Origin: Candidatus Acetothermia bacterium
GTDB lineage: Bacteria > Bipolaricaulota > Bipolaricaulia > RBG-16-55-9
Assembly (NCBI GenBank): GCA_016201405.1
Contig: JACQCZ010000014.1
Span: forward strand, 106,631 to 170,630
Direction: 5' to 3'
Length of the DNA stretch: 64,000 bases
Shown: one piece after another, positions 2,210-41,074 of the stretch
Layout of the letters: each line of letters opens with the position of its first letter
Numbering within the stretch: the stretch's first letter is position 1
The notes under the pieces: model-generated
Seen by the model: only the letters and a program-made list of their open reading frames with translations
Databases searched by the model: none
What the model was told of the DNA's origin: nothing
Made by a program: the position numbers and the translations under genes

Positions 2210-3454
2210 ATCGGGGAAATCTCCGCTCACATCCATAACGTCCAACTCGATGATCTTGGCTGTAAAACCAAGTAGCTCTGCCAGATTTGGATCTGTGCGC
2301 CCGCCATCTCCGGAGATCAGTTCTTTCACATAAAGCCCGCCATCACAGCGAAGCTCTATCATAGCCTCTGTAGGGCTTAACAACTCTCCTTGGATAGAAA
2401 ATAGATAGCGCCATCGCGTCAGGTTGGCGCGGCGATGAAGCACTCGCTCTGGCGTCTGCTGCGAGATCTTTCCAGTCAACTTTGCGAGTGTACCATTAAG
2501 AACGACAGAATTTATCGGCTTCTCGAAAGTCACTTTTGCCCGATACGACTTTTGAGCCTTCCCTTCTTTGATCTCTTCAACGACTTTTCTTGAAACAAAA
2601 TGGAGATCTCCGGCTTCGACTTTTCCGCTGGCAGTGGCGTTGATTTCACTCTTTAATCCAGCAAGTTTCAACGTACGTACTTTGGGGCTCTTAATCTCCA
2701 GCACAAAAGGCCGCCCAGTGCCGAGCATTCGCGCGTCAATATCCTCGCGACCAGCGCCATGAAAGGCATGCTCTTTGCTTTTTGCCGCCTCTAGCACGGG
2801 AGCGGCAATCAGCTCTCCCACGCTCTCTGGGTACTGCTTCCCCGTCCCCTTGCAATGAGCACAGCCCTTGCCTTTGCATTTTCGGCAGGGCCAGATAGTT
2901 TGCGGAATATTTCGTACAAATTTTTGGTACCGCCCATAGATGTAGAGCGAATGAATTTCAATTTCCAGTTTCTTTCGTTCCAAATCGATTAAAAAGACGA
3001 CTTCAGGTTGGTTAAAATCGACGGCAATCTCCCGTCCTGTTACGTTTTGAGCCTGGCCGAATCTCTTGCCCACCAACCGATTGAACTCCTGTTTGAAAGG
3101 CTCCACTTGTTCTTGAGGAATCGCATAGCGACTCCAGAAGCTCTGCTCAGCCCGGACCACATTCTCAGGAGGGCGCGTTCCCACCAGGTATTTTGCAAAT
3201 TCGACTCCTTCAATACGATCGGCAGAGAGCCTGCTCCATTCTGCTACCTGCTCGAATAGATTATTGCAGATTGAGCAGATAGCAGGGCTATCGGGCTTCT
3301 TTCCTGATTCCATCGCATAGAGGACGCGAAGCGCCCTTCCCCGCTCTTCAACGCTAAGAGCCGTACCTAGTTTGGCAAAACAGCGACCTAAGCAGTGATC
3401 GCAAATGACTTCGTTTGCCAAGATCTCTCTTGCCATCTCAATGAGTGGTTTCAT
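2201..3454 (-). CDS. pus10: tRNA pseudouridine synthase Pus10 (archaeal/eukaryotic type)
   Basis: 417 aa; N-terminal CxxC...CxxC zinc motif, a second Cys cluster (CRKCKGKGCAHCKG) and catalytic-looking GREDIDARMLGTGRPF motif. Confidence 0.7.
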   Translation of the reverse strand: MKPLIEMAREILANEVICDHCLGRCFAKLGTALSVEERGRALRVLYAMESGKKPDSPAICSICNNLFEQVAEWSRLSADRIEGVEFAKYLVGTRPPENVVRAEQSFWSRYAIPQEQVEPFKQEFNRLVGKRFGQAQNVTGREIAVDFNQPEVVFLIDLERKKLEIEIHSLYIYGRYQKFVRNIPQTIWPCRKCKGKGCAHCKGTGKQYPESVGELIAAPVLEAAKSKEHAFHGAGREDIDARMLGTGRPFVLEIKSPKVRTLKLAGLKSEINATASGKVEAGDLHFVSRKVVEEIKEGKAQKSYRAKVTFEKPINSVVLNGTLAKLTGKISQQTPERVLHRRANLTRWRYLFSIQGELLSPTEAMIELRCDGGLYVKELISGDGGRTDPNLAELLGFTAKIIELDVMDVSGDFPDLF

Positions 3455-5016: not shown

Positions 5017-6363
5017 GTGACCACACGGGATAGCAGAGGGCATTGGAGCCGGAGAGAATTTTTGAAAACGGCCGGAGTCGGGTTAGGTGCGCTCTCACTC
5101 GCTTCGTTTGTAGGCTTCTCTCAAGCCACCCCAGCCATTCGCATCGGGCTCATCGATCCACTGCTCTTGCCCGTTGGAACGGCTGCTACGCGCGGCGCAT
5201 CGATTGCTGTCGATGAGATCAACGCCGCCGGGGGCGTCTTGGGCCGGCCCTTCAAAGTTGACTCGTACATCAAAGATGATGGCCTCGACACAAGCGTTGG
5301 GCCACAAAACTTTGAGACGCTTGTCGTTGAGGATAAAGTCTTGGCTGTCGTCGGAGGCTTTCTCGATGAAGTGACTCTGGCCATTGTAGACACAGTTCTG
5401 CCGCGTCTTCGCACCCCATTTTTAAATACAGGAACTGCCACTCCAGAGACAACAGATCGTGTGCGAACTGACTATGCCAATTTCAAATATTATTTCCGGC
5501 TGATGCTGGACACCGACATCCTGACGGCGGACACCGTCAGTGCCGCAGCAGGGGTCCTCGGCAAAGAGGTCCATGTCACATCTGCCGGGATTCTCGTCGA
5601 AGATGGTGTCTTTGGCCGCGATTTCCAAAGCTTCATGGAGACCAAGCTCCCAGGCGTCGGAATCAGCGTCCCAAGCGGTGCTTCCTTCCGCTTTCCAGAG
5701 AGCGGAAGTTTTGATTTCAGCAGCATCCTAAATCAATCGAAAGAGGCTGGTGTGGAGGCATTTATCATTGCCTTTGCCCGAAACGATGGCGTTGGCTTTG
5801 TGACACAGTGGTTCAATCAGGGTCCGCGTGTCCCTGTGCTTGGCATCAATGTCTCTGGCCAGGCCTTTGAATATTATGCAAGCACGCTAGGCAAAGTCGT
5901 CTCACACGTCTATGCGGACGCCGCAACCGGTGCGACGGCCATCACCGAGAAGACTCTCCCATTTTTCAATAGCTATGTGAGCCGTTATACAACGCCTCCA
6001 GTGCAGCCCCTCTTTACGGGATATACGACCTATGATTCTATCTACATCTTAAAGCAGGCGATCGAGCGCATCGGAGAGACGCCGCCACTCACAGGCGATG
6101 AAGCTGGCTATAGCGCTTATAAAGACGAGCTTGTCGCGGCCATCGAGCAGACCGACATCATCTCAACAGTTGGACACGTCCGCTTCCAAGGAAAGAGTGA
6201 CCCTAAGCCTCATGATCCCTTTACTTTAGATGCCCAGGGCAATGTCTTCGTCGTTCCCAAGTGGGTCCAGTGGCAAGTGGAGAATGGCAAAGCGGATCGA
6301 AAGGTCGTCTGGCCAACGGAGTATAAGAACTCGCAATTTGTTCCTCCGCCGCCACAGTCGTGA
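5017..6363 (+). CDS. ABC transporter substrate-binding protein (type 1 periplasmic binding fold, branched-chain amino acid/amide family) with Tat signal
   Basis: 448 aa; twin-arginine motif SRREFLK and hydrophobic region; followed by two permease genes. Confidence 0.75.
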   Translation: MTTRDSRGHWSRREFLKTAGVGLGALSLASFVGFSQATPAIRIGLIDPLLLPVGTAATRGASIAVDEINAAGGVLGRPFKVDSYIKDDGLDTSVGPQNFETLVVEDKVLAVVGGFLDEVTLAIVDTVLPRLRTPFLNTGTATPETTDRVRTDYANFKYYFRLMLDTDILTADTVSAAAGVLGKEVHVTSAGILVEDGVFGRDFQSFMETKLPGVGISVPSGASFRFPESGSFDFSSILNQSKEAGVEAFIIAFARNDGVGFVTQWFNQGPRVPVLGINVSGQAFEYYASTLGKVVSHVYADAATGATAITEKTLPFFNSYVSRYTTPPVQPLFTGYTTYDSIYILKQAIERIGETPPLTGDEAGYSAYKDELVAAIEQTDIISTVGHVRFQGKSDPKPHDPFTLDAQGNVFVVPKWVQWQVENGKADRKVVWPTEYKNSQFVPPPPQS

Positions 6364-24402: not shown

Positions 24403-25389
24403 ATGACCATCGAGATGCAACTGGCAAAAACAGAAGAGGTCTTCCAGAAGCTGACGCGTGACATTCAGAAAGTTATTGTCGGCCACCAGGAGACTATCCG
24501 GGGGACGCTGATCTGCCTGCTCTGTGGCGGGCATGCTCTTCTCGAAGGCGTACCCGGGCTCGGCAAGACCCTCACCGTAAAGACGCTGGGTAAATTATTG
24601 GGGCTCTCTTTCTCCAGAATTCAGTTTACGCCCGATCTCATGCCCGCAGACATTTTGGGAACCAATATCATTGTGGAAGAGGGAGGCCGGAGGGCCTTTG
24701 AGTTTTCAAAGGGCCCCATCTTTGCCCATATTGTGCTGGCGGACGAGATAAACCGCGCCACCCCCAAGACGCAATCTGCGCTCCTCGAAGCGATGCAGGA
24801 GCGCGGGGTCACCATCTCCGGCAAAACTTATGTACTGGACGAGCCATTTATCGTTCTGGCCACGCAGAACCCCATCGAGATGGAAGGCACATATCCTCTG
24901 CCTGAGGCACAAGTAGACCGCTTCTTCTTCAAGATTGTCCTCGATCAGCCGACGCAAGAAGAGCTGGACGAGATTCTCAAGCGCCACATGACATCACCGG
25001 AAGTGAAGCACATCGCCGGAAGCGCCATCTCGCGCGAGACTCTAGTCGACGCAAAGAAGCTGATGGCTCAGATCCCTATTGCGGAGCCGTTGCGCCATTA
25101 CATCGTGCGGCTGGTCAATGCCACGCATCCCAAGCGGGATGAGGCAGCTCCGCTGGTCAAAGAATACGTCGAATATGGAGCGAGCCCGCGCGCTGGCATC
25201 GCCCTTCTCTGGGGCGCAAAGGCCAATGCATTCTTAGATGGCCAATTGAACGTTCGCATCGAAGATATTCAGCGCGTCTTTGTGCCTGCATTCCGGCACC
25301 GAATCATCCGCAACTTCCGGGGCGAGGCGGAGGGCATCGCCGTCGATGAGATCTTAAAACAAGTGATCGAGAAGACTCCCGAGGTATAG
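24403..25389 (+). CDS. MoxR family AAA+ ATPase
   Basis: 328 aa; Walker A GVPGLGKT, Walker B VLADEINR, and the MoxR sensor region. Confidence 0.9.
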   Translation: MTIEMQLAKTEEVFQKLTRDIQKVIVGHQETIRGTLICLLCGGHALLEGVPGLGKTLTVKTLGKLLGLSFSRIQFTPDLMPADILGTNIIVEEGGRRAFEFSKGPIFAHIVLADEINRATPKTQSALLEAMQERGVTISGKTYVLDEPFIVLATQNPIEMEGTYPLPEAQVDRFFFKIVLDQPTQEELDEILKRHMTSPEVKHIAGSAISRETLVDAKKLMAQIPIAEPLRHYIVRLVNATHPKRDEAAPLVKEYVEYGASPRAGIALLWGAKANAFLDGQLNVRIEDIQRVFVPAFRHRIIRNFRGEAEGIAVDEILKQVIEKTPEV

Positions 25390-25395
25390 CGGCAC

Positions 25396-26268
25396 ATGCC
25401 CCTTCTGCTCGATTCAGCCTATCTCAAAAAGCTCGAAAACCTGGGTCTGGTCATTCGGGGGCGCTTTCATGGCTATATGACCGGAAAGCGGCTCACTTCC
25501 CGCTCCGGGATGAGCCTGGAATTTGCTGAATACAAAGAATATTCGCCGGGGGATGATTTTCGCTATGTAGACTGGAATCTCTATGGACGCCTTGGGAAGC
25601 TCTTTGTCAAACGCTTTAACCGCGAAGAGGACGTTCCGATCTATCTCTTTTTGGACATTAGCCATTCGATGGCCATCGGAGAAAAGCTCAATTACGCCGT
25701 TCTGCTGGCGGGCACGCTGGCCTATTTAGGACTGAAAGAATTCAATCGCGTCGGGATCTTTCCGTTTGCCAGCGATCTGGCTCTCGGCGTGCCTCCCAAA
25801 GGGAGCTACAAACAGCTCTTCCAGATCTTCCATTTCTTAGAGAAAGTCGTGCCAGCGGGAGAGACCTCCATCAATGAGTCCCTGACGCGCTTTACGCGCA
25901 TCCGCCGTGAGAGCGGGCTGGCCGTCATTATCAGCGACATGCTCAGCGAGGATGGCTTTGAAGAGGGACTGGCACAGCTCCTCTATCATGGCTATGAGGT
26001 GATCGTCCTTCATCTGTTGGCTCCCGATGATTTGAATCCAGCGTGGAATGGCGAGATTCGCCTCAAAAATATTGAAGACCAGAAGGAGATTACAGTCCAT
26101 GTGGATCGCGCTGCGCTGAACGAGTACCAGACGGCCTTGGATAATTATCGTTCAAGACTGGAAGCATTCTGTCGTGAGCGCGGCATCCGCTATGCCCTGG
26201 TCTCTACGGACAGCCCTCTTGAGAAGACAGTCTTCGAGACCTTGCGGGAAGGGGCGCTGGTTCAATGA
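25396..26268 (+). CDS. DUF58 domain protein (MoxR partner)
   Basis: 290 aa; DUF58 signature YVDWNLYGRLGKLFVKRF and LFLDISHSM; directly downstream of MoxR. Confidence 0.85.
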   Translation: MPLLLDSAYLKKLENLGLVIRGRFHGYMTGKRLTSRSGMSLEFAEYKEYSPGDDFRYVDWNLYGRLGKLFVKRFNREEDVPIYLFLDISHSMAIGEKLNYAVLLAGTLAYLGLKEFNRVGIFPFASDLALGVPPKGSYKQLFQIFHFLEKVVPAGETSINESLTRFTRIRRESGLAVIISDMLSEDGFEEGLAQLLYHGYEVIVLHLLAPDDLNPAWNGEIRLKNIEDQKEITVHVDRAALNEYQTALDNYRSRLEAFCRERGIRYALVSTDSPLEKTVFETLREGALVQ

Positions 26269-28154
26269 CCTTTCTATCGGGCATTGCGCTCTGGCTTCTA
26301 GGCCTTGGTGCGATCATCACATTTATTTATTTCTTAAAGCGCCAGGCGCGGGTGCAGCCCGTCTCGACGCTCTTTCTCTGGCAAAGGATTGAGCAGAGGC
26401 CCCAGAGCGCGCTCCGTTTTCAGTGGACCCAGCTCCTCGGGCTCATCTTGCAGTTACTGGCTCTCACAGCCATTGTGGTGGGGATTGCCCAGCCGGTGAT
26501 CTACTCTGCCAGCGGCGGTGTGGGACGAATGGCCATTCTGCTCGATGGAAGCGCCAGCATGCGAGCGCTCATGCCTTCTGAAAAGATCACACGCTTTGAG
26601 CGGGCCGTACAGCGGGCTCAAGGGTTGCTCGATGAGAATCCGGCTGCCGAGGTGACCTTGGTCGAGGCACAGACGCACAGCGCAATCCTTGTACCGCCTA
26701 CCCATGATCATTCCTTCATTCGCAAGGCTCTGAGCGACGCCAGGCCGACGTATCAGGGGAATGCTGACTCGGGCGAGCTGCTCAGCCTTCTTCAAAGTCA
26801 GAGCAGCACAGGCTATGACCAAGTTGTCCTGATCAGCGATCAAGCTGCCAAGCCGCAGCAGCAGCAATTGGGGATTGATGTTGAGTCCGTCTTGGGAGAT
26901 GAATCTTCTGAAAATATTGCCCTTACGGACTTTTCTGTGCGTGAGCAGCCCAATGGCAAGGGGTATGACTTCTATCTCCAAGCCTGGAACTCATCGAGTG
27001 ATGCAGTAAACGTTCCGCTGGATATAGAAGCCGATGGGAAATCCGTCCAGTCGGATGTGATCACCATCCCCGCGCATGGCTCTCTCTCACGAACTTTCTC
27101 ATCGTCGCTTCGCTATGCGGATGAGTTTCGAGCCAAGATCGATACCACGGCTCTTCCCGACGACTGGAGCGATGATGACGTACGCTATGCGACATCTCCA
27201 CAGCCACCCCCCTGGAAGATTTTATGGGTAGGCAAGATCAATTTTTATCTAGAGAGCTTTTTGCAGAATTCAGGAGAGGTTGACCTGACCGAGAAGGCGA
27301 CCCTGGATGAAGCGGGAGATCTCAACCGCTATGACGTGGTCCTGCTCAATCAAGTCGATCTTTCGGATGCTCAGGCTGGCGCGGGTCATTATCTGGCATT
27401 TGGCGGCTCTTTTGGAAGCTATATCCTCTCCAAAAGCATTCATGATCTGACGAGTGGCGCGGTGGATGTCCAGAAAGATGACCCACTCTTGCAAGGGATG
27501 GACCCGACCGCTTGGCGACTGCTCCACATTCCGGACGCGGCCGTCGATCCCAAGGGAGAGGTCTTATTATCTTCCGAGAGTCTTCCGTTTCTTTATATTT
27601 ATGAGAAGCCGGGTCTGCGGCTTTCGTATATCGGAGCCGATTTGGAGGCTTCCAATCTTGTATTGTCGATTGATTTTCCAATACTGATCTATCGTCTGCT
27701 CTCTTGGCTTTCTCCCCGCTCTGGGGAGAGCACAACGCTGACGGCTGGAGACGAGCTTCCGCTATCATCATTAGAAAATATAAAGAGCATTGTCGATCCG
27801 CAAGGCAAGACCTGTCAATACAATTCTTCCGCAAGCCAGTGCGGCAGCTTGGGCGAGATCGGTTTCTATCAGGCCACGCGAGCCGATGGAGAGGCCGTGA
27901 CTTTCGCCGCCAATGCGGATCCAACAGAGTCTATTTGGGAGGATGCTTCGGATGCGGCTGCAACTGCAGTGACTCCGACGAGCTCACAGCAGGCAGGGTC
28001 ACTGGGCGACACGCCGCAAGCGTTAAAAGCGGCGATCCCTGTATGGCCCTATTTGCTGGCGATTGGATTGATCTTATTACTGGCTGAGCTCTTCACATTT
28101 CACCGTCCAACGGCAATTCCATGGCTGCCCTCCCTGGGGAGGAAGAGGGCATGA
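26265..28154 (+). CDS. BatA-like membrane protein with VWA domain
   Basis: 629 aa; N-terminal BatA-type TM region, MIDAS-like DGSAS motif, C-terminal TM helix. Start overlaps upstream stop. Confidence 0.7.
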   Translation: MTFLSGIALWLLGLGAIITFIYFLKRQARVQPVSTLFLWQRIEQRPQSALRFQWTQLLGLILQLLALTAIVVGIAQPVIYSASGGVGRMAILLDGSASMRALMPSEKITRFERAVQRAQGLLDENPAAEVTLVEAQTHSAILVPPTHDHSFIRKALSDARPTYQGNADSGELLSLLQSQSSTGYDQVVLISDQAAKPQQQQLGIDVESVLGDESSENIALTDFSVREQPNGKGYDFYLQAWNSSSDAVNVPLDIEADGKSVQSDVITIPAHGSLSRTFSSSLRYADEFRAKIDTTALPDDWSDDDVRYATSPQPPPWKILWVGKINFYLESFLQNSGEVDLTEKATLDEAGDLNRYDVVLLNQVDLSDAQAGAGHYLAFGGSFGSYILSKSIHDLTSGAVDVQKDDPLLQGMDPTAWRLLHIPDAAVDPKGEVLLSSESLPFLYIYEKPGLRLSYIGADLEASNLVLSIDFPILIYRLLSWLSPRSGESTTLTAGDELPLSSLENIKSIVDPQGKTCQYNSSASQCGSLGEIGFYQATRADGEAVTFAANADPTESIWEDASDAAATAVTPTSSQQAGSLGDTPQALKAAIPVWPYLLAIGLILLLAELFTFHRPTAIPWLPSLGRKRA

Positions 28155-30721
28155 TTCGGTTCAGCCAGCTCTGGCCGCTTCTCTTACTGCTTATCCCTAT
28201 CGGACTGCTCCTCTGGCAGTGGGAGGCGCTGAAGCGCTTTACCCTCGGCGACCGCATTTCGTTTGGGGCGCGGCTCGGAGTTGTGGCGCTTGGCATCCTC
28301 GCACTCTCAGGACCGCAATTGTTGAGCTGGACGGAATCGCACTACGTCTATTTTCTGGCAGATCTTTCCAAAAGCGTGAGCCCTCAAGACCGGGGTCAGC
28401 TGCTCTCGGAGCTTCGCGCACTCGCCAAGCCGCAAGAGTACACTCAATACGGCCTGATCGTCTTTGGGGTCAAGCCGTATGTCGAAGCTCCATTCAGCCC
28501 AATGTTAAATTTGAACGAGGTCTTGACGAATGTCGATAGTGAAGGAACAGATTTGCAGGCCGCACTGGAGCTGGCCATGTCAACCTTCCCCCGTGATGGC
28601 AAGAAGACGATTGTGCTTCTTTCCGATGGCCAGCCAAGCCAGGGAGAGACGACAGAGGCGCTGGCCCGCGCCAAACGGGAAGGGGTAGAGATCTTCACTT
28701 TGCCGATGGACCCGCCAGCCTCTGAGTTTTCAATCCAGACGATCCAGGCTCCACAAGAGGTCGCAGTCCAGCTCCCCTTCTCATTCCAGAGCGTCGTCTA
28801 TGCCTCACGATCCAGCACCGGAAAGCTGCTCACATACCGCAATGAGACACTGATTGACACAAAAGATGTCGCTCTGCGTCCTGGGCTCAATTACTTTTCG
28901 TATAGCGACAAAGTGAATGACCCCGGCAGCTATGAGTACCGAGCCGAGCTTGTTGTCGCTGGCGATGCGCTCCCTCAGAACAATCATTATCGCGCATTGG
29001 TCGATGCGATCGGCGATCCGCGCATTCTTCTGGTAGAGAACAATTCTTCAGAGCAAGAATCGGTGATGGGAAAGCTGTTAAAAAACTCTGGCTATGCCTT
29101 CTCCAAAGTGAGCCTGAATGAGCTGGCGCCGACAGCCAGCTCCCTGCTCTCATACCGAGCTGTGATTATGAACGAAGTGCCGCTCAAAGATCTCACGGCA
29201 CGGCAGACCGAATTTCTAGAAAATTATGTGCGCGATCTCGGCGGAGGGCTCTTCCTCGTCCAGGGCAGGCAGTCCGTCGAAGAGTTTTATGACCGCCAGT
29301 TTGAGCAGATGCTGCCCATCACCTATGAAGGTCCGCAAGAGATCCAGCGCCCCGCGCTCGCTTTGGTGATGCTGCTCGACCGCTCCGGCAGCATGGGCGA
29401 GATCGCCGGCGGTGATACCAAGGGCAGCTATATGAAGATCGATCTCTTAAAACAGGCAGCACGAGAGGCCGTCTCCAAGCTCGATGACAACAGCCTTGTC
29501 GGCATCATCGGCTTTGACTCGACCTACGACTGGCTGGTAGACATTGGCCCCGTGAAAGGTCGGAAAGATGAGATTTTAGCTGCAGTTGATAAGCTCTATG
29601 CCAATGGCGGGACAGACATCTATCAGCCTCTCAAAGATGCCGTCGCCCAGTTGCAGAAGCTGACCGCGCGCGTCAAGCACATTCTGGTCTTCTCCGATGG
29701 AAAAGTATCCCAGCAGGGGCGCGATTTCGATCAAATCTTCCAGGAGATTGCCGGCAGCACGATCAGCGCCTCATCCATTGCCATCGGAGCACAAGCCGAT
29801 TTTGACTTCATGTGGAAGCTGGCGGATGCGGGGAGCGGCGCCAAATATCCAGTGGCCGATGCGCGGGATCTGCCACGAATCACGCTGGAAGAGATGGTGC
29901 GGCTGGAACGCGCCCGCTGGGTCAAAGGGCCATTGGGTGTCGAGGCCGGACCCTTTGCAAATCAGCTGACTGGAATTGACCCCAGCACCATCCCCAATGT
30001 CGATGGCTATGTTCTGACGTTTGAGAAGCCAACGGCGCAGACGCAGCTTCAGGTCCGTGCTGACAAAGATCATGCAGACCCTCTGGTGAGTCAGTGGCAC
30101 TATGGTCTGGGCAAGGTCTTTGTGCTCAACACCAGCTTTGAAGGCGAAGGCCTGGAGCGCTGGAAGTCCTGGAGCGGACTGGGCGAGCTGAGCTCTGAGA
30201 TTCTGAGCCAGGTCTACAGCGAGAGCACCATCAAGCCCAAAGAGCTAGCCGTCTGGACAGATTCTTCTAACTCAACGCTGAGCGTCCATGTTGAAGCGGA
30301 CCGCGACGGCAAATGGCTGGATCAATTGGTAATGAATGGGCAACTCAACACACCGGATGGCAAGTCAATTCCTCTCGACTTGGAACAGACGGGACCAGGG
30401 ACCTATCAGGCCACCGTAAAAGATCTGAGCGAAGGCGTCTATCTGCTCAATTTGGGTGAAGATTCACTCGGTCAAGTCCAAGAGGCTGTCCAGATTCCCT
30501 ATGCAGCGGAGTACAAAAAGATTGGGCTGAATGAGCCACTTTTGCAACAGATCGCAGAAGTGACTGGAGGAGAATATCTTGAGAATCCAGATCGCTTGCA
30601 AGGCCTGTTGCAGGGCCGGACACTGATCTACCGGGATATCTGGCAGGAGATTTTATTGGCAGCCCTCTTCTTCTTTCTGGCCGATCTGGCTCTGAGAAAA
30701 GTGCCTTTTCTGCACGCTTAA
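28151..30721 (+). CDS. BatB-like membrane protein with two VWA domains
   Basis: About 856 aa from ATG 28151 (ATGA overlap); N-terminal TM, two MIDAS-like motifs (DLSKS and DRSGS), C-terminal TM anchor. Confidence 0.7.
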   Translation: MIRFSQLWPLLLLLIPIGLLLWQWEALKRFTLGDRISFGARLGVVALGILALSGPQLLSWTESHYVYFLADLSKSVSPQDRGQLLSELRALAKPQEYTQYGLIVFGVKPYVEAPFSPMLNLNEVLTNVDSEGTDLQAALELAMSTFPRDGKKTIVLLSDGQPSQGETTEALARAKREGVEIFTLPMDPPASEFSIQTIQAPQEVAVQLPFSFQSVVYASRSSTGKLLTYRNETLIDTKDVALRPGLNYFSYSDKVNDPGSYEYRAELVVAGDALPQNNHYRALVDAIGDPRILLVENNSSEQESVMGKLLKNSGYAFSKVSLNELAPTASSLLSYRAVIMNEVPLKDLTARQTEFLENYVRDLGGGLFLVQGRQSVEEFYDRQFEQMLPITYEGPQEIQRPALALVMLLDRSGSMGEIAGGDTKGSYMKIDLLKQAAREAVSKLDDNSLVGIIGFDSTYDWLVDIGPVKGRKDEILAAVDKLYANGGTDIYQPLKDAVAQLQKLTARVKHILVFSDGKVSQQGRDFDQIFQEIAGSTISASSIAIGAQADFDFMWKLADAGSGAKYPVADARDLPRITLEEMVRLERARWVKGPLGVEAGPFANQLTGIDPSTIPNVDGYVLTFEKPTAQTQLQVRADKDHADPLVSQWHYGLGKVFVLNTSFEGEGLERWKSWSGLGELSSEILSQVYSESTIKPKELAVWTDSSNSTLSVHVEADRDGKWLDQLVMNGQLNTPDGKSIPLDLEQTGPGTYQATVKDLSEGVYLLNLGEDSLGQVQEAVQIPYAAEYKKIGLNEPLLQQIAEVTGGEYLENPDRLQGLLQGRTLIYRDIWQEILLAALFFFLADLALRKVPFLHA

Positions 30722-33297: not shown

Positions 33298-33774
33298 ATG
33301 AAGATCTGGAATTTTGCATTCGGCTCGCATCTGGATCTGGGGCGCTATGCAGAGATCATTGAAGGAAAGCCTGCACAGCGCATGAAGGCAATACTACGAG
33401 ATCATCGGCTCACGGCGTCGGCACTGACTCGATTCCCCAAAGAGCATGAGGATCTGGCAGGAACTGGCGGCGGGCCGCGATTTATTCCACAACAGGAAAG
33501 TCAAGTCTATGGCGTGCTCTATGAGATTGACTCCAAACAATGGGCGCTCCTGGATCAGTACGAGCGGGCCTGGGCTTATGAGAGTCTTCCAGTCGAAGCG
33601 CAAACCGAGAATGGCAGAATAGTAAAAGCCCTTGCTCACAATCTGGTGGAGTTCGGAAGATTCTCTCCCCCTTCGGATCAATTTCTGAAATATATGGCGC
33701 ACGGGTTACGCGATCTGGGATACTCAGAGAAAATTATTGAAGAAGTGCGAAATTCAGTTTTGCTGCCGATATGA
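33298..33774 (+). CDS. gamma-glutamylcyclotransferase (AIG2/GGCT-like) family protein
   Basis: 158 aa; N-terminal FAFGSHL (YGS/T-x-L type motif) and conserved Glu in GVLYEID. Confidence 0.6.
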   Translation: MKIWNFAFGSHLDLGRYAEIIEGKPAQRMKAILRDHRLTASALTRFPKEHEDLAGTGGGPRFIPQQESQVYGVLYEIDSKQWALLDQYERAWAYESLPVEAQTENGRIVKALAHNLVEFGRFSPPSDQFLKYMAHGLRDLGYSEKIIEEVRNSVLLPI

Positions 33775-33815: not shown

Positions 33816-34052
33816 ATGCCGACTGTGCTCAAAGTGGGGCCGTATCGATTCTTCTTTTACGCAGGAGATCGAGGTGAGCCTCCGCATGTTCATGTCGAAC
33901 ACGACGATAAGATCGCGAAGTTTTGGCTTGATCCAATCCGAATGCACAGAAGTGGAGGATTTTCTAGGGCCGAGGTGAGCAGAATTCAGAAACTGGCAGG
34001 CACGCATCAAAAGAGATTGCTGGAGGCATGGAATGAGTACTTCTCCAATTGA
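33816..34052 (+). CDS. DUF4160 family protein
   Basis: 78 aa; PPHVHVEHDDKIAKFWLDP pattern; overlaps the next gene by 20 nt. Confidence 0.6.
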   Translation: MPTVLKVGPYRFFFYAGDRGEPPHVHVEHDDKIAKFWLDPIRMHRSGGFSRAEVSRIQKLAGTHQKRLLEAWNEYFSN

Positions 34053-34356
34053 GATCACAATTCCATTCGCACAGAATGTGACGATTTCAGCCGACACATT
34101 GAGTGTCGAGCTGAGCGATGGGCGCACAATTTCAGTACCACTCACTTGGTTTCCCAGACTTGTCCAGGCAACAGCTAAAGAGCGCAAGAACTGGAGATGG
34201 ATTGGCCAGGGAGAAGGTATCCACTGGGAAGAACTCGACGAAGATATCAGTGTCGAGAATCTGTTGACTGGAAAACCTTCAGGCGAGAGTCAGGCTTCCT
34301 TTAAGAAGTGGCTCGCCAAACGCGCACCCCGACAGATTGAACGCGGTAATAAATAG
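34033..34356 (+). CDS. DUF2442 family protein
   Basis: 107 aa; typical partner of DUF4160 (LSVELSDGRTISVPLTWFPRL). Confidence 0.6.
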   Translation: MSTSPIEITIPFAQNVTISADTLSVELSDGRTISVPLTWFPRLVQATAKERKNWRWIGQGEGIHWEELDEDISVENLLTGKPSGESQASFKKWLAKRAPRQIERGNK

Positions 34357-34401
34357 CCCACTAGGGCTGCAGGCAAAGCCCACAGCCCCAGTGGCACATG
34401 C

Positions 34402-34617
34402 TTAGCTACTACAACAGCCGTCGGAGCAGCAGCCGGGTGGACAACAGTCCACGCAGCACTTTTCATCCTTACCCGATGCAGGCTGCTGGGCTGCCGTCGC
34501 CCTGCTGCTCGCTGCCGCGACTCCTAGCGCGCCCAAGGCCAGCACAGAAGCAGTCTGACCCAGTTTGTGCAGGAAGGAGCGGCGGTCTGCTCTCTCGTCC
34601 AGCGAAGCGGCATTCAT
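34402..34617 (-). CDS. small Tat-signal secreted protein with C-terminal four vicinal-Cys pairs
   Basis: 71 aa; RRSFLHKLG twin-arginine motif, hydrophobic region, then CCVDCCPPGCCSDGCC; 16 nt downstream of the ArsR gene on the same strand. Confidence 0.5.
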   Translation of the reverse strand: MNAASLDERADRRSFLHKLGQTASVLALGALGVAAASSRATAAQQPASGKDEKCCVDCCPPGCCSDGCCSS

Positions 34618-34633
34618 AAGAAATTCCCCCTTT

Positions 34634-35053
34634 CTATGATTGAGATTGCCGAGAACAGCAGCAGCACGCTGGCTGCTCCGGCTTTGAACTGAGATTATGG
34701 GAAAGCTCTTCCCATTGTCTTGAGAACTTCGATGAGATCTCGAAATAACTCCATCTCCCTTCTCGCTGATTCTCTAATATGCCAGCCTGTACGAGCTGAT
34801 TGAGATGATGAATCACCGTAGAGTGCGAAAGCTCAAAGGCAGACTCAATCTCACAGCCGCAGAGCCGGCCATACTGCCGGACCAATTTGAAGATGGCCAG
34901 CCGATTTTTATCAGCCAAAGCGACCATGGTTCCCAAATCCACGGCAAAGCAGGAGTCATGGGTCAGCCCTTTTACGGCTTGCCGAAAGTCTGCGCTGCAA
35001 CAGCGCGCATCTTCATGAAGCTTCGAGAGTCTCTCTTTTAGCTCATTTTTCAT
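34634..35053 (-). CDS. ArsR/SmtB family metalloregulatory transcription factor
   Basis: ArsR HTH with LCGCEIE metal-site-like motif and C-terminal CCCC cluster. Start chosen at MKNELK (GAGGAG RBS upstream); the ORF extends to 35203. Confidence 0.7.
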   Translation of the reverse strand: MKNELKERLSKLHEDARCCSADFRQAVKGLTHDSCFAVDLGTMVALADKNRLAIFKLVRQYGRLCGCEIESAFELSHSTVIHHLNQLVQAGILENQREGRWSYFEISSKFSRQWEELSHNLSSKPEQPACCCCSRQSQS

Positions 35054-35065
35054 TGTGGCTCTCCT

Positions 35066-35087
35066 CATGTCGATATAAATAGACATG
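35066..35087. promoter_or_regulatory. perfect palindrome CATGTC-N10-GACATG upstream of the ArsR-family gene; candidate autoregulatory operator
   Basis: 6-bp arms, AT-rich 10-nt spacer (gatataaata), directly upstream of the RBS. Confidence 0.45.
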
Positions 35088-35180
35088 GAAGAATAGCACC
35101 AAGAGCTCCATGTTGTCAAGCCAGGGTGTTTGTGCGGGTCGATTTCTAGATAACATGTCCAGTGGTACAATGTCATCGAA

Positions 35181-37296: not shown

Positions 37297-38403
37297 ATGC
37301 TCACTGCGCAAATCTCGATCAAGCGCACAACTCGCGATTCAGAGCCATTTCAGATAGAGGTCTCAATCCAAGCCAGGCAGGGAATCACAACTCTCTTTGG
37401 CCCTTCGGGCTCTGGCAAAAGCTCAATCTTGCAGGCCATTGCTGGATTGTTAAAACCCGATGCCGGACACATTGAAGTGGATAATCAAATCTTCTTTGAT
37501 TCCACAAAGCAGATTGATCTGCCTCTGAGAGATCGCTGCGTTGGGTATCTCTTTCAAGATCTGGCTCTCTTCCCACACCTCAGTATTGAAGCCAATGTTG
37601 CGTACGGCCTGCACTCGTTGAATAAAAAAGAGAAGCATGAGAAGGCACTCCAGATTCTTGAGAGCTTTGGACTTCAGGCTATGGCATCGCGCAAGCCCAA
37701 GCAGCTTTCGGGAGGGCAACAGCAGCGAGTCGCATTAGCACGAGCTTTGGTCATCAATCCCAGAATCTTGTTATTAGATGAGCCTTTGTCGGCACTCGAT
37801 TCGGCCACCAAGCGCGATCTGATGGCTGAGATCAAGAGAGTGGCTCAAAATTTGTCTATTCCCATTCTCTATGTGACGCACAGCCGCGATGAAGTCTTGG
37901 CACTGGCGCATCATGTCATTGCCCTTGATCGGGGACGAGTCATTGCAGAGGGCGAGCCGCTTCAGGTCCTTGAGAACGCAAGCAACCCGACCATTGCACG
38001 GCTGACGGGTGTCGAGAATCTATTTGTTGGGAAAATAATGGACAAGCATCTAGAGCGCGGCACGATGACCTTTCAGATTGATAAGACTCTCTTAGAGATT
38101 CCGCTTACTGATCAGGCCGTTGGAGAGGTCATTCAGGTTGCGATTCGGGCTGGTGATATCTTGCTCTCGCTGGCAGAGCCGAAGGGACTGAGCGCACGAA
38201 ATCGCATCGTTGGAAAGGTACTAGAAGTCAATCCGCATGAGCACAATCAGCTAGTGCGAGTGGAGTCCAGTCCTGGGGTCGTCTTTTCGGTCTTGATTAC
38301 GAGCAGCGCTCAACACGAGCTGAATGTGCATCCAGGGAAAAATATTTGGCTGCTCATCAAGACTCATGCCTGTCATATTTTGGCTGGCAGAGATTCATAT
38401 TAA
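37297..38403 (+). CDS. modC: molybdate ABC transporter ATP-binding protein with C-terminal MOP/TOBE domain
   Basis: 368 aa; Walker A GPSGSGKS, signature LSGGQQQR, Walker B LLLDEP. Confidence 0.9.
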   Translation: MLTAQISIKRTTRDSEPFQIEVSIQARQGITTLFGPSGSGKSSILQAIAGLLKPDAGHIEVDNQIFFDSTKQIDLPLRDRCVGYLFQDLALFPHLSIEANVAYGLHSLNKKEKHEKALQILESFGLQAMASRKPKQLSGGQQQRVALARALVINPRILLLDEPLSALDSATKRDLMAEIKRVAQNLSIPILYVTHSRDEVLALAHHVIALDRGRVIAEGEPLQVLENASNPTIARLTGVENLFVGKIMDKHLERGTMTFQIDKTLLEIPLTDQAVGEVIQVAIRAGDILLSLAEPKGLSARNRIVGKVLEVNPHEHNQLVRVESSPGVVFSVLITSSAQHELNVHPGKNIWLLIKTHACHILAGRDSY

Positions 38404-38650
38404 CAGTAAATTTCTGGATTCCGGCTCGCGCTTCGCGTGGCCGGAATGACGGGCAAGAAAGCACCCGTCATTCTTGCTTAATTTCGTATGTCATTCCTGC
38501 GAAAGCAGGAATCCAGCGGCTTTCTGTTTTTGGCAAGATTCGTAGATTCCTGGCTTCCGGGTCTACACTTCGCTTGGCTGGAATGACAATCTTATTGATG
38601 CCTGTCATATTTTGGCTGATAGAAATGAATTTCAGTAAAGGCCCAGAAAT
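38366..38650. repeat. composite palindromic repeat insertion at the 3' end of modC: 21-bp perfect direct repeats flanking nested GGAATGAC/GTCATTCC hairpin units
   Basis: atgcctgtcatattttggctg at 38366-38386 and 38598-38618; hairpin units between them. See finding. Confidence 0.6.
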
Positions 38651-38766: not shown

Positions 38767-39201
38767 TCACCTCTTAGCACACTCTTGACAGACTGATGAT
38801 CCTTTGTCAACCACACGTCCGCATTCGCGGCAATTGGACTTCAAATCTTCGTAACAGTTGGGGCAGATGGCATGCTCACGGCCAACCGGCTTTCCGCAGT
38901 GAGGGCATTTGGAGGTAAATGAAAGGTTAAACTTTGAGGCCTTCTCTGCCAAAGGCTCAGGATAGGCGCGCAGCCAGATGGCGATCTGTCTGCTGGCGCG
39001 GAACGAGAATGGAACCCAGAAAAAGGCAAAGATGACCCAACTGATCCATTCTAAGATGGGGGTCAGCTCGCGGGCAAAGAGAATTCCAACCCAGATCAGC
39101 AGCCAAAAGGGGAGCCAGCGAAGCCAGCCACCTCCAAACCACGAGATCGAGCAGATTCTCCGCTCAGATCTTCTCTCGCGTCTCCACGTGCGATAGCTCA
39201 T
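38767..39201 (-). CDS. membrane protein with C-terminal zinc-ribbon
   Basis: Tryptophan-rich TM helices followed by four CxxC pairs (CPHCGK, CPNCYE, CRECGR, CQEC). Start uncertain; the ORF extends to 39255. Confidence 0.5.
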   Translation of the reverse strand: MSYRTWRRERRSERRICSISWFGGGWLRWLPFWLLIWVGILFARELTPILEWISWVIFAFFWVPFSFRASRQIAIWLRAYPEPLAEKASKFNLSFTSKCPHCGKPVGREHAICPNCYEDLKSNCRECGRVVDKGSSVCQECAKR

Positions 39202-40066
39202 TGACTTCCAGTGACTCCTCGTATTCGACTCGCTCAATCTCGCAGCCCAGGCCAATGATCACATTTTTGCCGCGGACAATCTTGGCTTTGGTCGATTCCA
39301 AGTGAATCTCATCGCCTTCAATCGTTTCGGCTTCGAGCACACCATTGCCAATAAAGCCGCTCACGTGGATGCCAAAGTTACCCAAGCTCTCTTTGAGCTG
39401 CCCCATCATGTCGGCTATCTTCTCCAGATCAACATCAATGTTGACCCCGAAGTCATTGAACTTCCAGCGCTTTCCTCGTGCTTTCTCTTCCATGCGTCTC
39501 TTGAATTTATCTTGGTCAAAGCCGCCAAATTTCTGCAAGACTTCGATCTTTTCGCCGCCAATCTCACGGGCATGAGAATCCCCACCTAGCCGAATTGAGA
39601 TCTCGTCGGCGCTGAGCAGACCGCCAATCTCAAAAGAGCCTTCCGAGTTGAATTTGTCGGCCTCGACGTCACCGCCGACTGCGCATGTGCCGCTGATCTT
39701 GATATAGCTGGTAGTTAGCTTACCGCCGATCTTCTGCGTGCCAGAGCACTTAAAGACATCTGCTGAGACATCGCCATTGACCACCGCTGAGCCTGTGGTG
39801 CGCAGGTCTTCGGCTTTCACGTTGCCATCGACGCGGCATGAGCCTGCTGAGTGAAACTCTTCCGCTTCGGCATCCCCTTCGATCGCGCATGACCCTGCAA
39901 TGCTGATCGACTCGGCTTTGACATCACCGGCAATTGTCCCTGAGCCGGCCACTTTGATGCTCTGGTAGGTGCCGCCGCTGATCCGGCCCGAGCCGGCAAT
40001 CGTGACGCGCTCTGCGCCCTCTTCTTCTTTGGCCTCTGATCTCATGACCATAATCGCTCCTTTCAC
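39164..40066 (-). CDS. bactofilin-like (polymer-forming, beta-helical repeat) protein with two repeat domains
   Basis: 300 aa; repeated G-x-G beta-strand pattern (GSGRISGG, VAGSGTIAGDV, IAGSCAIEGD, ISGTCAVGGDV) typical of bactofilin/YhbE-YhbF-type proteins. Confidence 0.6.
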   Translation of the reverse strand: MKGAIMVMRSEAKEEEGAERVTIAGSGRISGGTYQSIKVAGSGTIAGDVKAESISIAGSCAIEGDAEAEEFHSAGSCRVDGNVKAEDLRTTGSAVVNGDVSADVFKCSGTQKIGGKLTTSYIKISGTCAVGGDVEADKFNSEGSFEIGGLLSADEISIRLGGDSHAREIGGEKIEVLQKFGGFDQDKFKRRMEEKARGKRWKFNDFGVNIDVDLEKIADMMGQLKESLGNFGIHVSGFIGNGVLEAETIEGDEIHLESTKAKIVRGKNVIIGLGCEIERVEYEESLEVNELSHVETREKI

Positions 40067-40260
40067 CGCCCGTATTTCTTATGCTGCAGCCAGCGGAAGA
40101 GCAAGTAGATTCCTCCGCCAATCAGAACCCACGGCAAGACCGCAGCCACCAATTCGACGGCTGCCGTCAGAATCTTGAACAGAATCAATATTCCAATGAG
40201 CAGAAGAACCCCTGCGCCGATGAGAAAGAGCAGATTCTTGAATGGATTGTCATTGTTCAT
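40063..40260 (-). CDS. small two-TM membrane protein
   Basis: 65 aa, two hydrophobic helices; ATGA-type overlap with the downstream bactofilin-like gene. Confidence 0.4.
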   Translation of the reverse strand: MNNDNPFKNLLFLIGAGVLLLIGILILFKILTAAVELVAAVLPWVLIGGGIYLLFRWLQHKKYGR

Positions 40261-40277
40261 GACTAGTCTTCACTCCT

Positions 40278-40931
40278 TCAGATACCCCGTAAGCTCAGTT
40301 TCGTCTCTTCGACAAGCTGACTCAGATCCAGTTGTGCGACAATCTGCGTCTCGGGGTCAAATCGCACCTTCGATTTGGGAGCGATGCAGCAGAGGCTGCT
40401 CCCCTTCTCTTTGCGCAGCACCCATAGAGTCCAGTCGGCTTCGGATTCGCTTGCCGGCAATACATCGGCGTTGAGCGTGGAGAGAACAAGCCTTAACTCT
40501 TCCTGAGCCAGCTCTTTCGTCCCCAGCTCTTCGAGCGCCGCAATCTGAATGACATCTCGAAATGGGAATGGACTCTCATGCCCAGTGATCGTCTGAAAGC
40601 GCTTTAAGGTCTCAGTCGAGATAAATTTATTGACCAGCTCTTTAAGATCAAACCTGGCTTCCGTAGATTCAGGCGAGAGCATCTCTGTGATCTCTTCCAG
40701 GCTGTAATCTTCCTTGAGCTTCATGATCCGCTCGATGCGCTCAATGATCTTATCGCTCGGCAAAAAAGTCTCTTGGCCAGTAAAGGTGCTCTTGCGGATA
40801 AACCAGGACTCGGGGATGAGCCCCTTCCGCTTCCAGCGGTAAAACTGGCCATACGAGATGCCAAATTTATCTAGAATCCCTTTCTTGGAGATCAGTTCCG
40901 GCTCTCGCTGTGTAACCTCTTTGTCAGCCAT
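40278..40931 (-). CDS. DUF4004 (YhbD-like) MerR-type HTH protein
   Basis: N-terminal motif ISKKGILDKFGISYGQFYRWKRKGLIPESWFIRKSTFTGQETF. Start chosen at MADKEV so the pspA promoter lies in intergenic DNA; the ORF extends to 41012. Confidence 0.55.
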   Translation of the reverse strand: MADKEVTQREPELISKKGILDKFGISYGQFYRWKRKGLIPESWFIRKSTFTGQETFLPSDKIIERIERIMKLKEDYSLEEITEMLSPESTEARFDLKELVNKFISTETLKRFQTITGHESPFPFRDVIQIAALEELGTKELAQEELRLVLSTLNADVLPASESEADWTLWVLRKEKGSSLCCIAPKSKVRFDPETQIVAQLDLSQLVEETKLSLRGI

Positions 40932-40980
40932 AACGATTGCATTGTAACATAACACTGTTACGATTACAAGAGGGAAGAGT

Positions 40981-41009
40981 TTTGCAGGACCGGCTCGCTC
41001 TCTTATAAT
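40981..41009 (+). promoter_or_regulatory. putative sigma70-type promoter of pspA-like gene
   Basis: TTTGCA at 40981-40986, 17-nt spacer, TATAAT at 41004-41009; about 65 nt upstream of ATG 41075. Confidence 0.45.
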
Positions 41010-41074
41010 CAATGGGCTAGGCGAGCTTATGAGGATTCAACCCACATGAGACTCGGAGCGAAAGGGGCATCTGA

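Follow-up and report, generated by a model that had tools for sequence, protein, structure and literature searches.

The pairing of an ArsR/SmtB sensor with a small Cys-rich product and an inverted-repeat operator at the promoter is known from the SmtB-SmtA and AzuR-NmtA systems of cyanobacteria, and the locus described here is likewise arranged in this way, with a putative operator. SmtA is a cytosolic protein of 56 amino acids (aa) with a zinc-finger-like fold, which uses CxC and His ligands and whose gene is divergent from that of SmtB. ArsD and the sensors AfArsR and CgArsR use vicinal Cys pairs to bind As(III). Export of a Cys-rich metal-binding protein by a twin-arginine signal is described for Csp1 (PMC12510493), and the minimal hairpin motif with affinity for biarsenicals is CCPGCC (PMC6273389). 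The present study deals with an arsR gene and the small gene directly downstream of it in a Candidatus Acetothermia bacterium (GTDB lineage Bipolaricaulota; assembly GCA_016201405.1). The two genes lie on the minus strand of a stretch of 64,000 nucleotides (nt) from contig JACQCZ010000014.1 (positions 106,631 to 170,630), which is referred to below as the window. According to the best-supported reading, they form a sensor-plus-thiol-peptide module, which would resemble SmtB/SmtA in function but would use another peptide chemistry, namely vicinal Cys pairs around a Pro-Pro-Gly turn, and to which an export signal has been added in Acetothermia. An overview of the features and their coordinates is given in Table 1.

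The small open reading frame (ORF) encodes the sequence MNAASLDERADRRSFLHKLGQTASVLALGALGVAAASSRATAAQQPASGKDEKCCVDCCPPGCCSDGCCSS, in which the Cys residues occupy positions 54/55, 58/59, 63/64 and 68/69 and thus show exactly the spacing CC-x2-CC-x3-CC-x3-CC. All sequence elements named in the original prediction, which had been made from the DNA alone, were recovered on the minus strand, including the 71-aa ORF 16 nt downstream of arsR and its eight Cys residues in four vicinal pairs. In the whole 64-kb window, arsR and the small ORF are the only ORFs with at least three CC pairs. The same gene pair is present in two syntenic metagenome contigs (L001 and L002) with ~84% DNA identity. In the comparison with L001, the ratio of nonsynonymous to synonymous substitution rates (dN/dS) of the small ORF is 0.22 in frame, with 6, 4 and 15 substitutions at the first, second and third codon positions, respectively, and 1.28 and 0.84 for the two other frames of the region; arsR shows a dN/dS of 0.20 in the same comparison. 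An antisense ORF of 73 aa at 34398-34619 was rejected, as dN/dS is ~1 in the other frames.

A HMMER profile scan of 1.84 billion cluster representatives yielded only two relatives of the peptide (P0002 and P0005), both encoded directly 3' of an orthologous arsR gene, while a third match (P0006) was discarded as a low-complexity repeat artefact. The more distant relative P0005 has the sequence MMDATKLQEIADRRGFLRKLGAASALFLGAAGLAGVSSKAAANQPSSSKDEACCQECCPPGCCSDANCC and adjoins an ArsR ortholog that is 50% identical; in its locus (L003), the stop codon of arsR and the start codon of the peptide gene overlap. The two orthologues, with identities of 88% and ~55%, keep all eight Cys residues, the PPG, the RR motif and the AxA site, and the three Acetothermia sequences share the core KDE-x-CC-x-[DE]-CCPPGCCS. 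A word-indexed protein search, carried out separately for the peptide and for ArsR, returned in each case the query itself and one close relative. Neither the full peptide nor its mature part matched any family of Pfam or NCBIfam (E<=0.01 to 10), and a tblastn search of plasmids with the mature peptide gave no match. The purifying selection in frame, the orthologues, the ribosome-binding site and the stop/start overlap in L003 indicate that the small ORF is a genuine gene under selection and is maintained in three related genomes, which answers the question of conservation raised in the original prediction. From the same comparisons, the peptide gene is translationally linked to arsR and belongs to a very small lineage-specific family.

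The original prediction had further proposed that the two genes are co-transcribed and that a perfect palindrome, CATGTC-N10-GACATG, lies over their promoter. The palindrome is present, starts 3 nt past the -10 box and abuts the ribosome-binding site of arsR, with 18 of its 22 positions self-complementary overall. The window contains 23 perfect 6-N10-6 palindromes of any sequence, and ATGTC-N10-GACAT with at most one mismatch is expected ~1.8 times by chance. Since the palindrome is therefore not statistically special on its own, the case for an operator rests on its position and conservation. It is retained as CATGTC-N10-GACATA in L001, where the last base is changed, and exactly as CATGTC-N10-GACATG in L003, although the regulator of L003 is only 50% identical; the region upstream of arsR as a whole has only 68% identity in the ortholog comparison. 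The palindrome is what would be expected as the footprint of an autoregulatory ArsR/SmtB operator, to which ArsR would bind. L001/L002 keep both the -35 and the -10 box, and the version in L003 reads TTGACT ... TGtGCTAAATT. The intergenic spacer AAAGGGGGAATTTCTT is 94% identical in L001 and is replaced by the gene overlap in L003. A terminator-like hairpin begins 7 nt past the stop codon of the small gene; it is conserved in L001/L002, and an analogous hairpin is located 3' of the peptide gene in L003. A search of the region 33.5-36 kb with Rfam gave only a chance match of 15 bits, and no riboswitch or leader RNA was found. Promoter, putative operator and terminator within one unit, together with the overlap in L003, support the view that arsR and the peptide gene are one transcription unit, as proposed.

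The regulator is assigned by its sequence to the ArsR/SmtB metalloregulator family, as had been predicted, with matches to Pfam HTH_5 (2.7e-11, 43.6 bits; cut-off 22) and to NCBIfam NF033788 HTH_metalloreg (68.4 bits; cut-off 55). It stays below the cut-offs of the equivalogs and subfamilies compared, which are CmtR (19 bits; cut-off 150), BigR (15.3; 155), TsoR (27.1; 115), the Rv2640c family (40.8; 155) and the ArsR of the E. coli type, PRK10141 (42.9; 97). Cys residues are found at positions 18, 19, 35, 65, 67 and 130-133. The CCCC cluster with which the protein was said to end does exist, but it lies six residues short of the C-terminus. The N-terminal CC, the CxC and the C-terminal CCC(C) are conserved in the three Acetothermia ArsRs, whereas Cys35 is not. 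The best relatives with solved structures are CadC proteins, with E-values of only ~1e-05, and the LCGCEI of ArsR (Cys65-x-Cys67) aligns with the LCVCDI of CadC (PDB 1u2w), whose Cys58/Cys60 bind Cd/Pb/Zn and belong to the thiolate alpha3N site. By its family and the positions of its Cys residues, the regulator is of the thiolate type, whose members sense As(III)/Sb(III) or soft cations.

At the N-terminus of the pre-peptide, the twin-arginine motif DRRSFLHKLG comprises residues 11-20, where Asp rather than Ser/Thr precedes the RR. It is followed by a Gly/Ala/Ser-rich, weakly hydrophobic h-region (mean Kyte-Doolittle 1.2), the basic Arg39 in the c-region and the cleavage motif SSRATA|AQQ (ATA|A). 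These features recur in all three orthologues as D-R-R-(S/G)-F-L-x-(K/Q)-L-G, a Gly/Ala/Ser-rich h-region, Arg39 or Lys, and an AxA site (ATA|A or AAA|N). The only weak family matches of the pre-peptide are to the signal regions of twin-arginine translocation (Tat) substrates, namely EfeB, a 66-aa 'formate dehydrogenase region TAT target', PhsA and DmsA. As a positive control, a Peripla_BP_6 binding protein of the window (5017-6363, plus strand), whose gene adjoins that of a branched-chain amino-acid permease, carries a bona fide twin-arginine signal (SRREFLKTAG) and reaches 23.2 bits with TIGR01409 against a cut-off of 16.7, which shows that the organism uses Tat signals. In the annotated part of the 64-kb window, no tatA or tatC was seen. 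Tat targeting of the peptide is likely, and cleavage would take place after ATA42. The Tat signal of the original prediction is borne out as far as the conserved RR motif is concerned, but the family models for such signals do not recognise it at their thresholds. The location of the peptide, which had been called periplasmic, presumes a particular type of envelope.

The original prediction had suggested a search for Cys-pair peptides beside ArsR in other genomes. The DNA pattern CC-x2-CCPPGCC was scanned over one genome per species and a tighter version over metagenome contigs. Adjacency to an arsR gene was no part of the criterion. The genome scan gave 30 matches, most of which were out-of-frame or unrelated Cys/Pro-rich frames in GC-rich DNA and were discarded. 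The three relevant matches are all from Actinomycetota: MDLRDEPCCPDCCPPGCC (L010), MRCDPCCPDCCPPGCC (L022) and MRGDPCCPDCCPPGCC (L034). These tiny ORFs have a strong Shine-Dalgarno sequence, stop directly after CC and are divergent from an ArsR gene, and the codons of their Cys core vary only at synonymous third positions. Close homologues of the ArsRs linked to them were then taken from the protein database, and their contigs were fetched regardless of the presence of a peptide. In this unbiased look-up, each of the five loci for which DNA was available has an unannotated divergent tiny ORF ending in C-C-P-x-x-C-C-stop, with the sequences MTMFVDPCCPEESCPPGCC, MDLRSDPSCPPDCCPPGCC, MQDPISPPDCCPPDCC, MVLGNDPNCPPDCCPPDCC and M..GVPSVEQRLDGCCPEDCCPSGCC (L047). 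A Shine-Dalgarno sequence precedes the listed ATG in four of the five; L047 needs an internal GVG (GTG) start for one.

Altogether, there are eight distinct actinobacterial ORFs of 16-25 codons, all of them unannotated and divergent from the ArsR gene, which end in ...CCP(P/S)(G/D)CC-stop and of which seven have a Shine-Dalgarno sequence before the listed ATG. They usually lie beside ArsC-like genes, whose products are proteins of the low-molecular-weight phosphatase type with arsenate reductases as their best family matches, below the cut-offs. A major intrinsic protein (MIP) channel and a methyltransferase are encoded next to the ORF of L047, and phosphate pit/pst genes are found in L022. 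In L034, a gene for a SCO4226-like nickel-responsive protein (1310-1561, plus strand; Pfam 1.3e-24) is located 3' of the peptide-linked arsR, which hints that ligands besides arsenic may matter in some members.

We propose to group these peptides by the core (C)C-P/x-x-[DE]-(C)C-P-[PS]-[GD]-CC at or near the C-terminus and by the position beside an ArsR with an N-terminal CC and an alpha3 CxC; the window gene, P0002, P0005 and the eight actinobacterial ORFs all share these properties. Six peptide-linked ArsRs from the two phyla all have the N-terminal CC and the alpha3 CxC. Cys-pair peptides thus recur in Actinomycetota next to arsenic genes, and the core and linkage shared by the two phyla may reflect homology, or else convergence. 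The tiny ORFs encode the Cys-pair hairpin without a signal, and the Acetothermia gene looks like the exported version of a wider, undescribed family of ArsR-linked micropeptides. CCPPGCC-repeat peptides of Planctomycetota were set apart from this group, because they are encoded between extracytoplasmic function (ECF) sigma genes and not beside ArsR. They occur in L008 (~3020-3257, plus strand; = L037), L015, L018 (= L038) and L028 (= L036), have a length of ~85-90 aa, a Sec-type signal (MNT..LPWFLC...), several CCPPGCC/CPPGCC repeats and a GSCCG tail, and are flanked by two ECF sigma-factor genes, with no ArsR nearby and no Pfam or NCBIfam match.

Within the sensor-plus-thiol-peptide reading, the view that the two genes detoxify a thiophilic metalloid or a soft metal as an autoregulated module appears to us evenly balanced between right and wrong. 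In such a module, an ArsR dimer would sit on the 22-bp palindrome, which overlaps the transcription start, and repress arsR and the peptide gene, as the behaviour of the family suggests. A thiophilic ligand, likeliest As(III)/Sb(III) and otherwise Cd, Hg or Cu(I), would be bound by Cys18/19 and the alpha3 Cys65-x-Cys67, possibly with the CCCC tail, and the repressor would be released. Judging from the conserved motifs, the 71-aa pre-peptide would cross the membrane by its twin-arginine-type signal and be cut after ATA42. The 29-residue mature peptide would then fold around the Pro-Pro-Gly turn and chelate the ligand with its four vicinal Cys pairs, and it may either carry the ligand out as folded Tat cargo or capture it outside the cytoplasm. 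That the peptide binds a metal or metalloid by thiolates is suggested by its eight Cys residues in 16 residues, its linkage to ArsR and its likeness to CCPGCC. The original prediction had spoken of a metal ligand in general, whereas the related loci point to As(III). By analogy, As(III)/Sb(III) is the most likely ligand because of the CC-P-G-CC and vicinal-Cys chemistry and the ars context of the actinobacterial ORFs, while Cd, Hg and Cu(I) are possible in view of a regulator that is most similar to CadC and of the lack of ars genes next to the Acetothermia module.

Several points weigh against this interpretation. No ars, cad, mer or cop transporter or reductase gene is located beside the module in the window, L001 or L003, so that its ligand is deduced only by analogy with another phylum. 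Two more distant plasmid ArsRs lie in annotated ars operons without a tiny ORF. The search pattern itself accounts for part of the likeness to the actinobacterial ORFs, as the Acetothermia core KDEKCCVDCCPPGCC and RDEPCCPDCCPPGCC are identical at 12 of 15 positions, nine of which were imposed by it, and short Cys/Pro-rich motifs can converge; moreover, the regulators of the two phyla share only 27-30% identity, a usual value within the family. Stoichiometric export, with one 71-aa product for every few metal atoms, would be costly. With regard to the export signal, the Tat model TIGR01409 is below its cut-off of 16.7 bits for P0002 (10.2 bits) and P0005 (11.7 bits) and does not match the window protein, and Pfam TAT_signal (PF10518) gave no match.

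Among the alternatives, the one that survives best retains the same architecture with a soft cation, i.e. Cd(II), Zn(II), Pb(II), Hg(II) or Cu(I), as the ligand, and the peptide would be an exported mini-metallothionein under a CadC-like sensor. We regard this as somewhat unlikely. In its favour, CadC proteins are the nearest relatives of known structure and the CxC falls on their Cd/Pb site, the Acetothermia module is without adjoining ars genes, one actinobacterial locus has the SCO4226-like nickel-responsive protein downstream of arsR, and vicinal Cys pairs are typical of Hg(II) relay proteins, too. However, most of the related actinobacterial loci carry ArsC-like reductases, the MIP channel or the methyltransferase, the CC-P(P)G-CC spacing fits the arsenical-binding tetracysteine hairpin, and no P-type ATPase or cation diffusion facilitator (CDF) transporter is linked.

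A second alternative concerns the N-terminus, which could be a Sec signal or an uncleaved membrane anchor instead of a Tat signal. The Cys tail would then be exposed on the outer face of the membrane or released unfolded, and it might serve as a thiol/redox buffer or as a polysulfide/persulfide carrier under a thiol-based, non-metal ArsR. The low scores with the Tat models are in line with this, but the RR-x-F-L, the h-region of low hydrophobicity, the basic c-region and the AxA are conserved in three orthologues, and the only weak family matches are to signal regions of known Tat substrates. Persulfide and redox sensors exist in the ArsR family, and the regulator has weak matches to TsoR (3e-06) and BigR (0.016), far below the cut-offs; its conserved Cys positions, however, fit the alpha3N metal site and not the Cys pair of BigR/SqrR. 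Taken as a whole, this explanation appears to us quite unlikely, and the redox-active or cofactor-binding peptide that had been offered as a further option in the original prediction gained no support from the analysis.

It is also conceivable that the Cys-rich ORFs act by being translated, either as cysteine/thiol-responsive leader ORFs or as Pro-Pro-Gly/Asp stalling elements. Such a role has a precedent in mycobacteria, where leaderless polycysteine short ORFs upstream of cysteine-metabolism operons regulate these operons as cysteine-responsive attenuators by ribosome stalling (10.1101/834739). The tiny ORF is directly upstream of arsC in L022 and L047. PPG and PPD are EF-P-dependent stalling motifs. 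Nevertheless, we consider this highly improbable: the window ORF is the last gene before the terminator and has a conserved 42-residue signal, L010 and L043 have no consistent co-directional gene after the tiny ORF, and L047 has PSG without Pro-Pro. In addition, the non-Cys residues (D, P-P-G) and the stop right after CC are conserved, and most of the tiny ORFs have a Shine-Dalgarno sequence, unlike the mycobacterial cases. Finally, a precursor of a ribosomally synthesised and post-translationally modified peptide (RiPP), or a bacteriocin-like secreted peptide with a coincidental position beside arsR, might be suspected from a small Cys-rich peptide with a leader-like N-terminal region and no known family, but this reading has a negligible probability and was rejected, as no maturase, and likewise no protease-transporter or immunity gene, is present within 10 kb in the three genomes, the tight coupling to arsR is conserved, and the separate ArsR linkage in Actinomycetota speaks against coincidence.

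Table 1. Features of the arsR-peptide unit in the window and tiny ORFs of the actinobacterial contigs.
Feature	Location	Strand	Description
Whole unit		-	Order: promoter, 22-bp near-palindrome, arsR, 16-nt gap, 71-aa ORF, hairpin terminator
Sigma-70-like promoter	35090..35119	-	TTGACA, 18-nt spacer, TG-extended -10 TATTCT (TTGACA-18-TGcTATTCT); 10/12 matches
Putative ArsR operator	35066..35087		CATGTCTATTTATATCGACATG; perfect 6-N10-6 palindrome CATGTC-N10-GACATG
arsR ribosome-binding site	35061-35066	-	GAGGAG
arsR	34634..35053	-	139-aa ArsR/SmtB regulator
Intergenic spacer	34618..34633	-	16 nt, AAAGGGGGAATTTCTT; holds the ribosome-binding site of the small gene
Small gene	34402..34617	-	71-aa pre-peptide; NCBI hypothetical protein HY229_04215
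Predicted signal peptide, residues 1-42	34492..34617	-	Read from sequence; features conserved in P0002 and P0005
Predicted mature peptide, residues 43-71	34405..34491	-	AQQPASGKDEKCCVDCCPPGCCSDGCCSS, 29 residues
Cys core, residues 54-69	34411..34458	-	Eight Cys in 16 residues
Intrinsic-terminator-like hairpin	34348..34394	-	17-bp stem, then T-rich tail; between convergent genes
Tiny ORF, L010	757-813	+	
Tiny ORF, L022	428-478	+	
Tiny ORF, L034	798-748	-	
Tiny ORF, L041	3959-3900	-	
Tiny ORF, L043	3914-3855	-	
Tiny ORF, L045	2917-2867	-	
Tiny ORF, L046	2967-2908	-	
Tiny ORF, L047	2952-2875	-	

In the window, L001 and L003, the neighbours of the module are modABC, OmdA, DUF2442/DUF4160, a GGACT-like gene and LysE. 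modABC was rejected as a functional partner, because its adjacency occurs in the window genome only. The gamma-glutamylcyclotransferase-like (AIG2/GGACT) gene is located at 33298-33774 (plus strand) in the window, at 2034-2510 in L001 and at 4137-4616 in L003. In each of these Acetothermia loci it converges with the peptide gene, which could be a matter of conserved synteny only or could reflect a link to thiol metabolism. Between the two genes, the window contains an overlapping DUF4160/DUF2442 pair of 78 and 107 aa (33816-34356, plus strand), which is also present in L001/L002. As it is absent in L003, the pair looks like a small inserted two-gene cassette. On the other side of the module, a trio of DUF4004, bactofilin and double-zinc-ribbon genes (window 38767-41012, minus strand; L003 1152-3333) is directly upstream of arsR in L003 and separated from it in the window by modABC and an OmdA/YdeI-like gene. 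This arrangement suggests an insertion or a loss of the mod genes in a neighbourhood that is conserved apart from them. Downstream of modC, two copies of a 29-nt direct repeat (ATGCCTGTCATATTTTGGCTG...) are found 232 nt apart (38366-38626, plus strand); they bracket GTCATTCCTGCGAAAGCAGGAATCCAG-type palindromes that resemble intergenic elements of the repetitive extragenic palindromic (REP) type, which yield spurious 'VIPAKAGIQ' ORFs. Farther away, just upstream of a rhomboid gene, genes for a MoxR-type AAA ATPase, DUF58, BatA and large VWA-domain proteins form a Bat/MoxR-VWA cluster (24403-30721, plus strand), for which the Pfam labels were taken from the identical Logan contig L039.

A more far-reaching version of the sensor-plus-thiol-peptide reading would be that at least two phyla encode ArsR-controlled hairpin micropeptides with four to eight Cys residues that bind trivalent As/Sb or soft metals, and that the Acetothermia form, which has acquired a twin-arginine signal by fusion, takes up its ligand in the cytoplasm and is then expelled folded via Tat. 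We consider this version unlikely as it stands. If it were true, expulsion of the peptide-metalloid complex by Tat would be a sacrificial, transporter-independent form of efflux, the peptide would be the smallest known Tat cargo with a defined role, and the locus would be a simple system in which to ask whether Tat disposes of a toxic ligand on a tiny cargo. An encoded, ArsR-controlled thiol hairpin of 16-29 residues would likewise be a new component of bacterial defence against arsenic and soft metals, and a natural counterpart of the engineered CCPGCC arsenical-binding tag. Annotation pipelines miss such peptides because most copies have fewer than 30 codons, and the tiny ORFs merit inclusion in the annotation of ars loci of Actinomycetota. 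The peptide and the pair of regulator and operator could be used as parts for metal(loid) biosensors and in biosorption.

Compared with the known systems, the peptide described here differs from SmtA in that it is co-transcribed with its regulator, carries an export signal of 42 residues, contains only vicinal CC pairs and matches no metallothionein family. With Csp1/Csp2 (TAT_Cys_rich, DUF326), it shares the Cys-rich metal-binding cargo with a twin-arginine signal, both metal binding and Tat targeting being putative in its case. However, Csp1 is a four-helix bundle of ~120 aa with at least 13 Cys residues that stores Cu(I), whereas the mature peptide has only 29 residues, is linked to ArsR and does not match that family. 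CC pairs, or a CC-P-G-CC hairpin, as ligands of trivalent arsenic would be the element in common with ArsD, AfArsR/CgArsR and the CCPGCC tag, but ArsD is a cytosolic thioredoxin-fold protein working with ArsA and the tag is engineered, while the peptide is free-standing. The literature searched yielded no natural CC-hairpin peptide that stands by itself, whether exported or not; the term 'CCPPGCC' gave 0 papers, and no such peptide is described under ars operon, small peptide, Tat or metallothionein. The regulator has the aligned CxC and additional N-terminal Cys ligands in common with the alpha3N-type CadC of pI258 and Listeria (Lmo1102), although its N-terminal Cys residues are vicinal (18/19) in contrast to Cys7/Cys11 of CadC, it has the extra CCCC near the C-terminus, and a cadA ATPase partner is lacking. 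The tiny ORFs resemble the polycysteine ORFs of mycobacteria as unannotated, very short ORFs of Actinomycetota with consecutive Cys codons, but they are distinguished by the Shine-Dalgarno sequence that most of them have, the P-P-G/D turn, the linkage to ArsR/ArsC and, in Acetothermia, the export signal. A thiol-rich binder under the control of ArsR/SmtB and a Cys-rich store exported by Tat are thus known concepts, while the exported form of 29 residues and the hidden micropeptides of the actinobacteria are unexpected.

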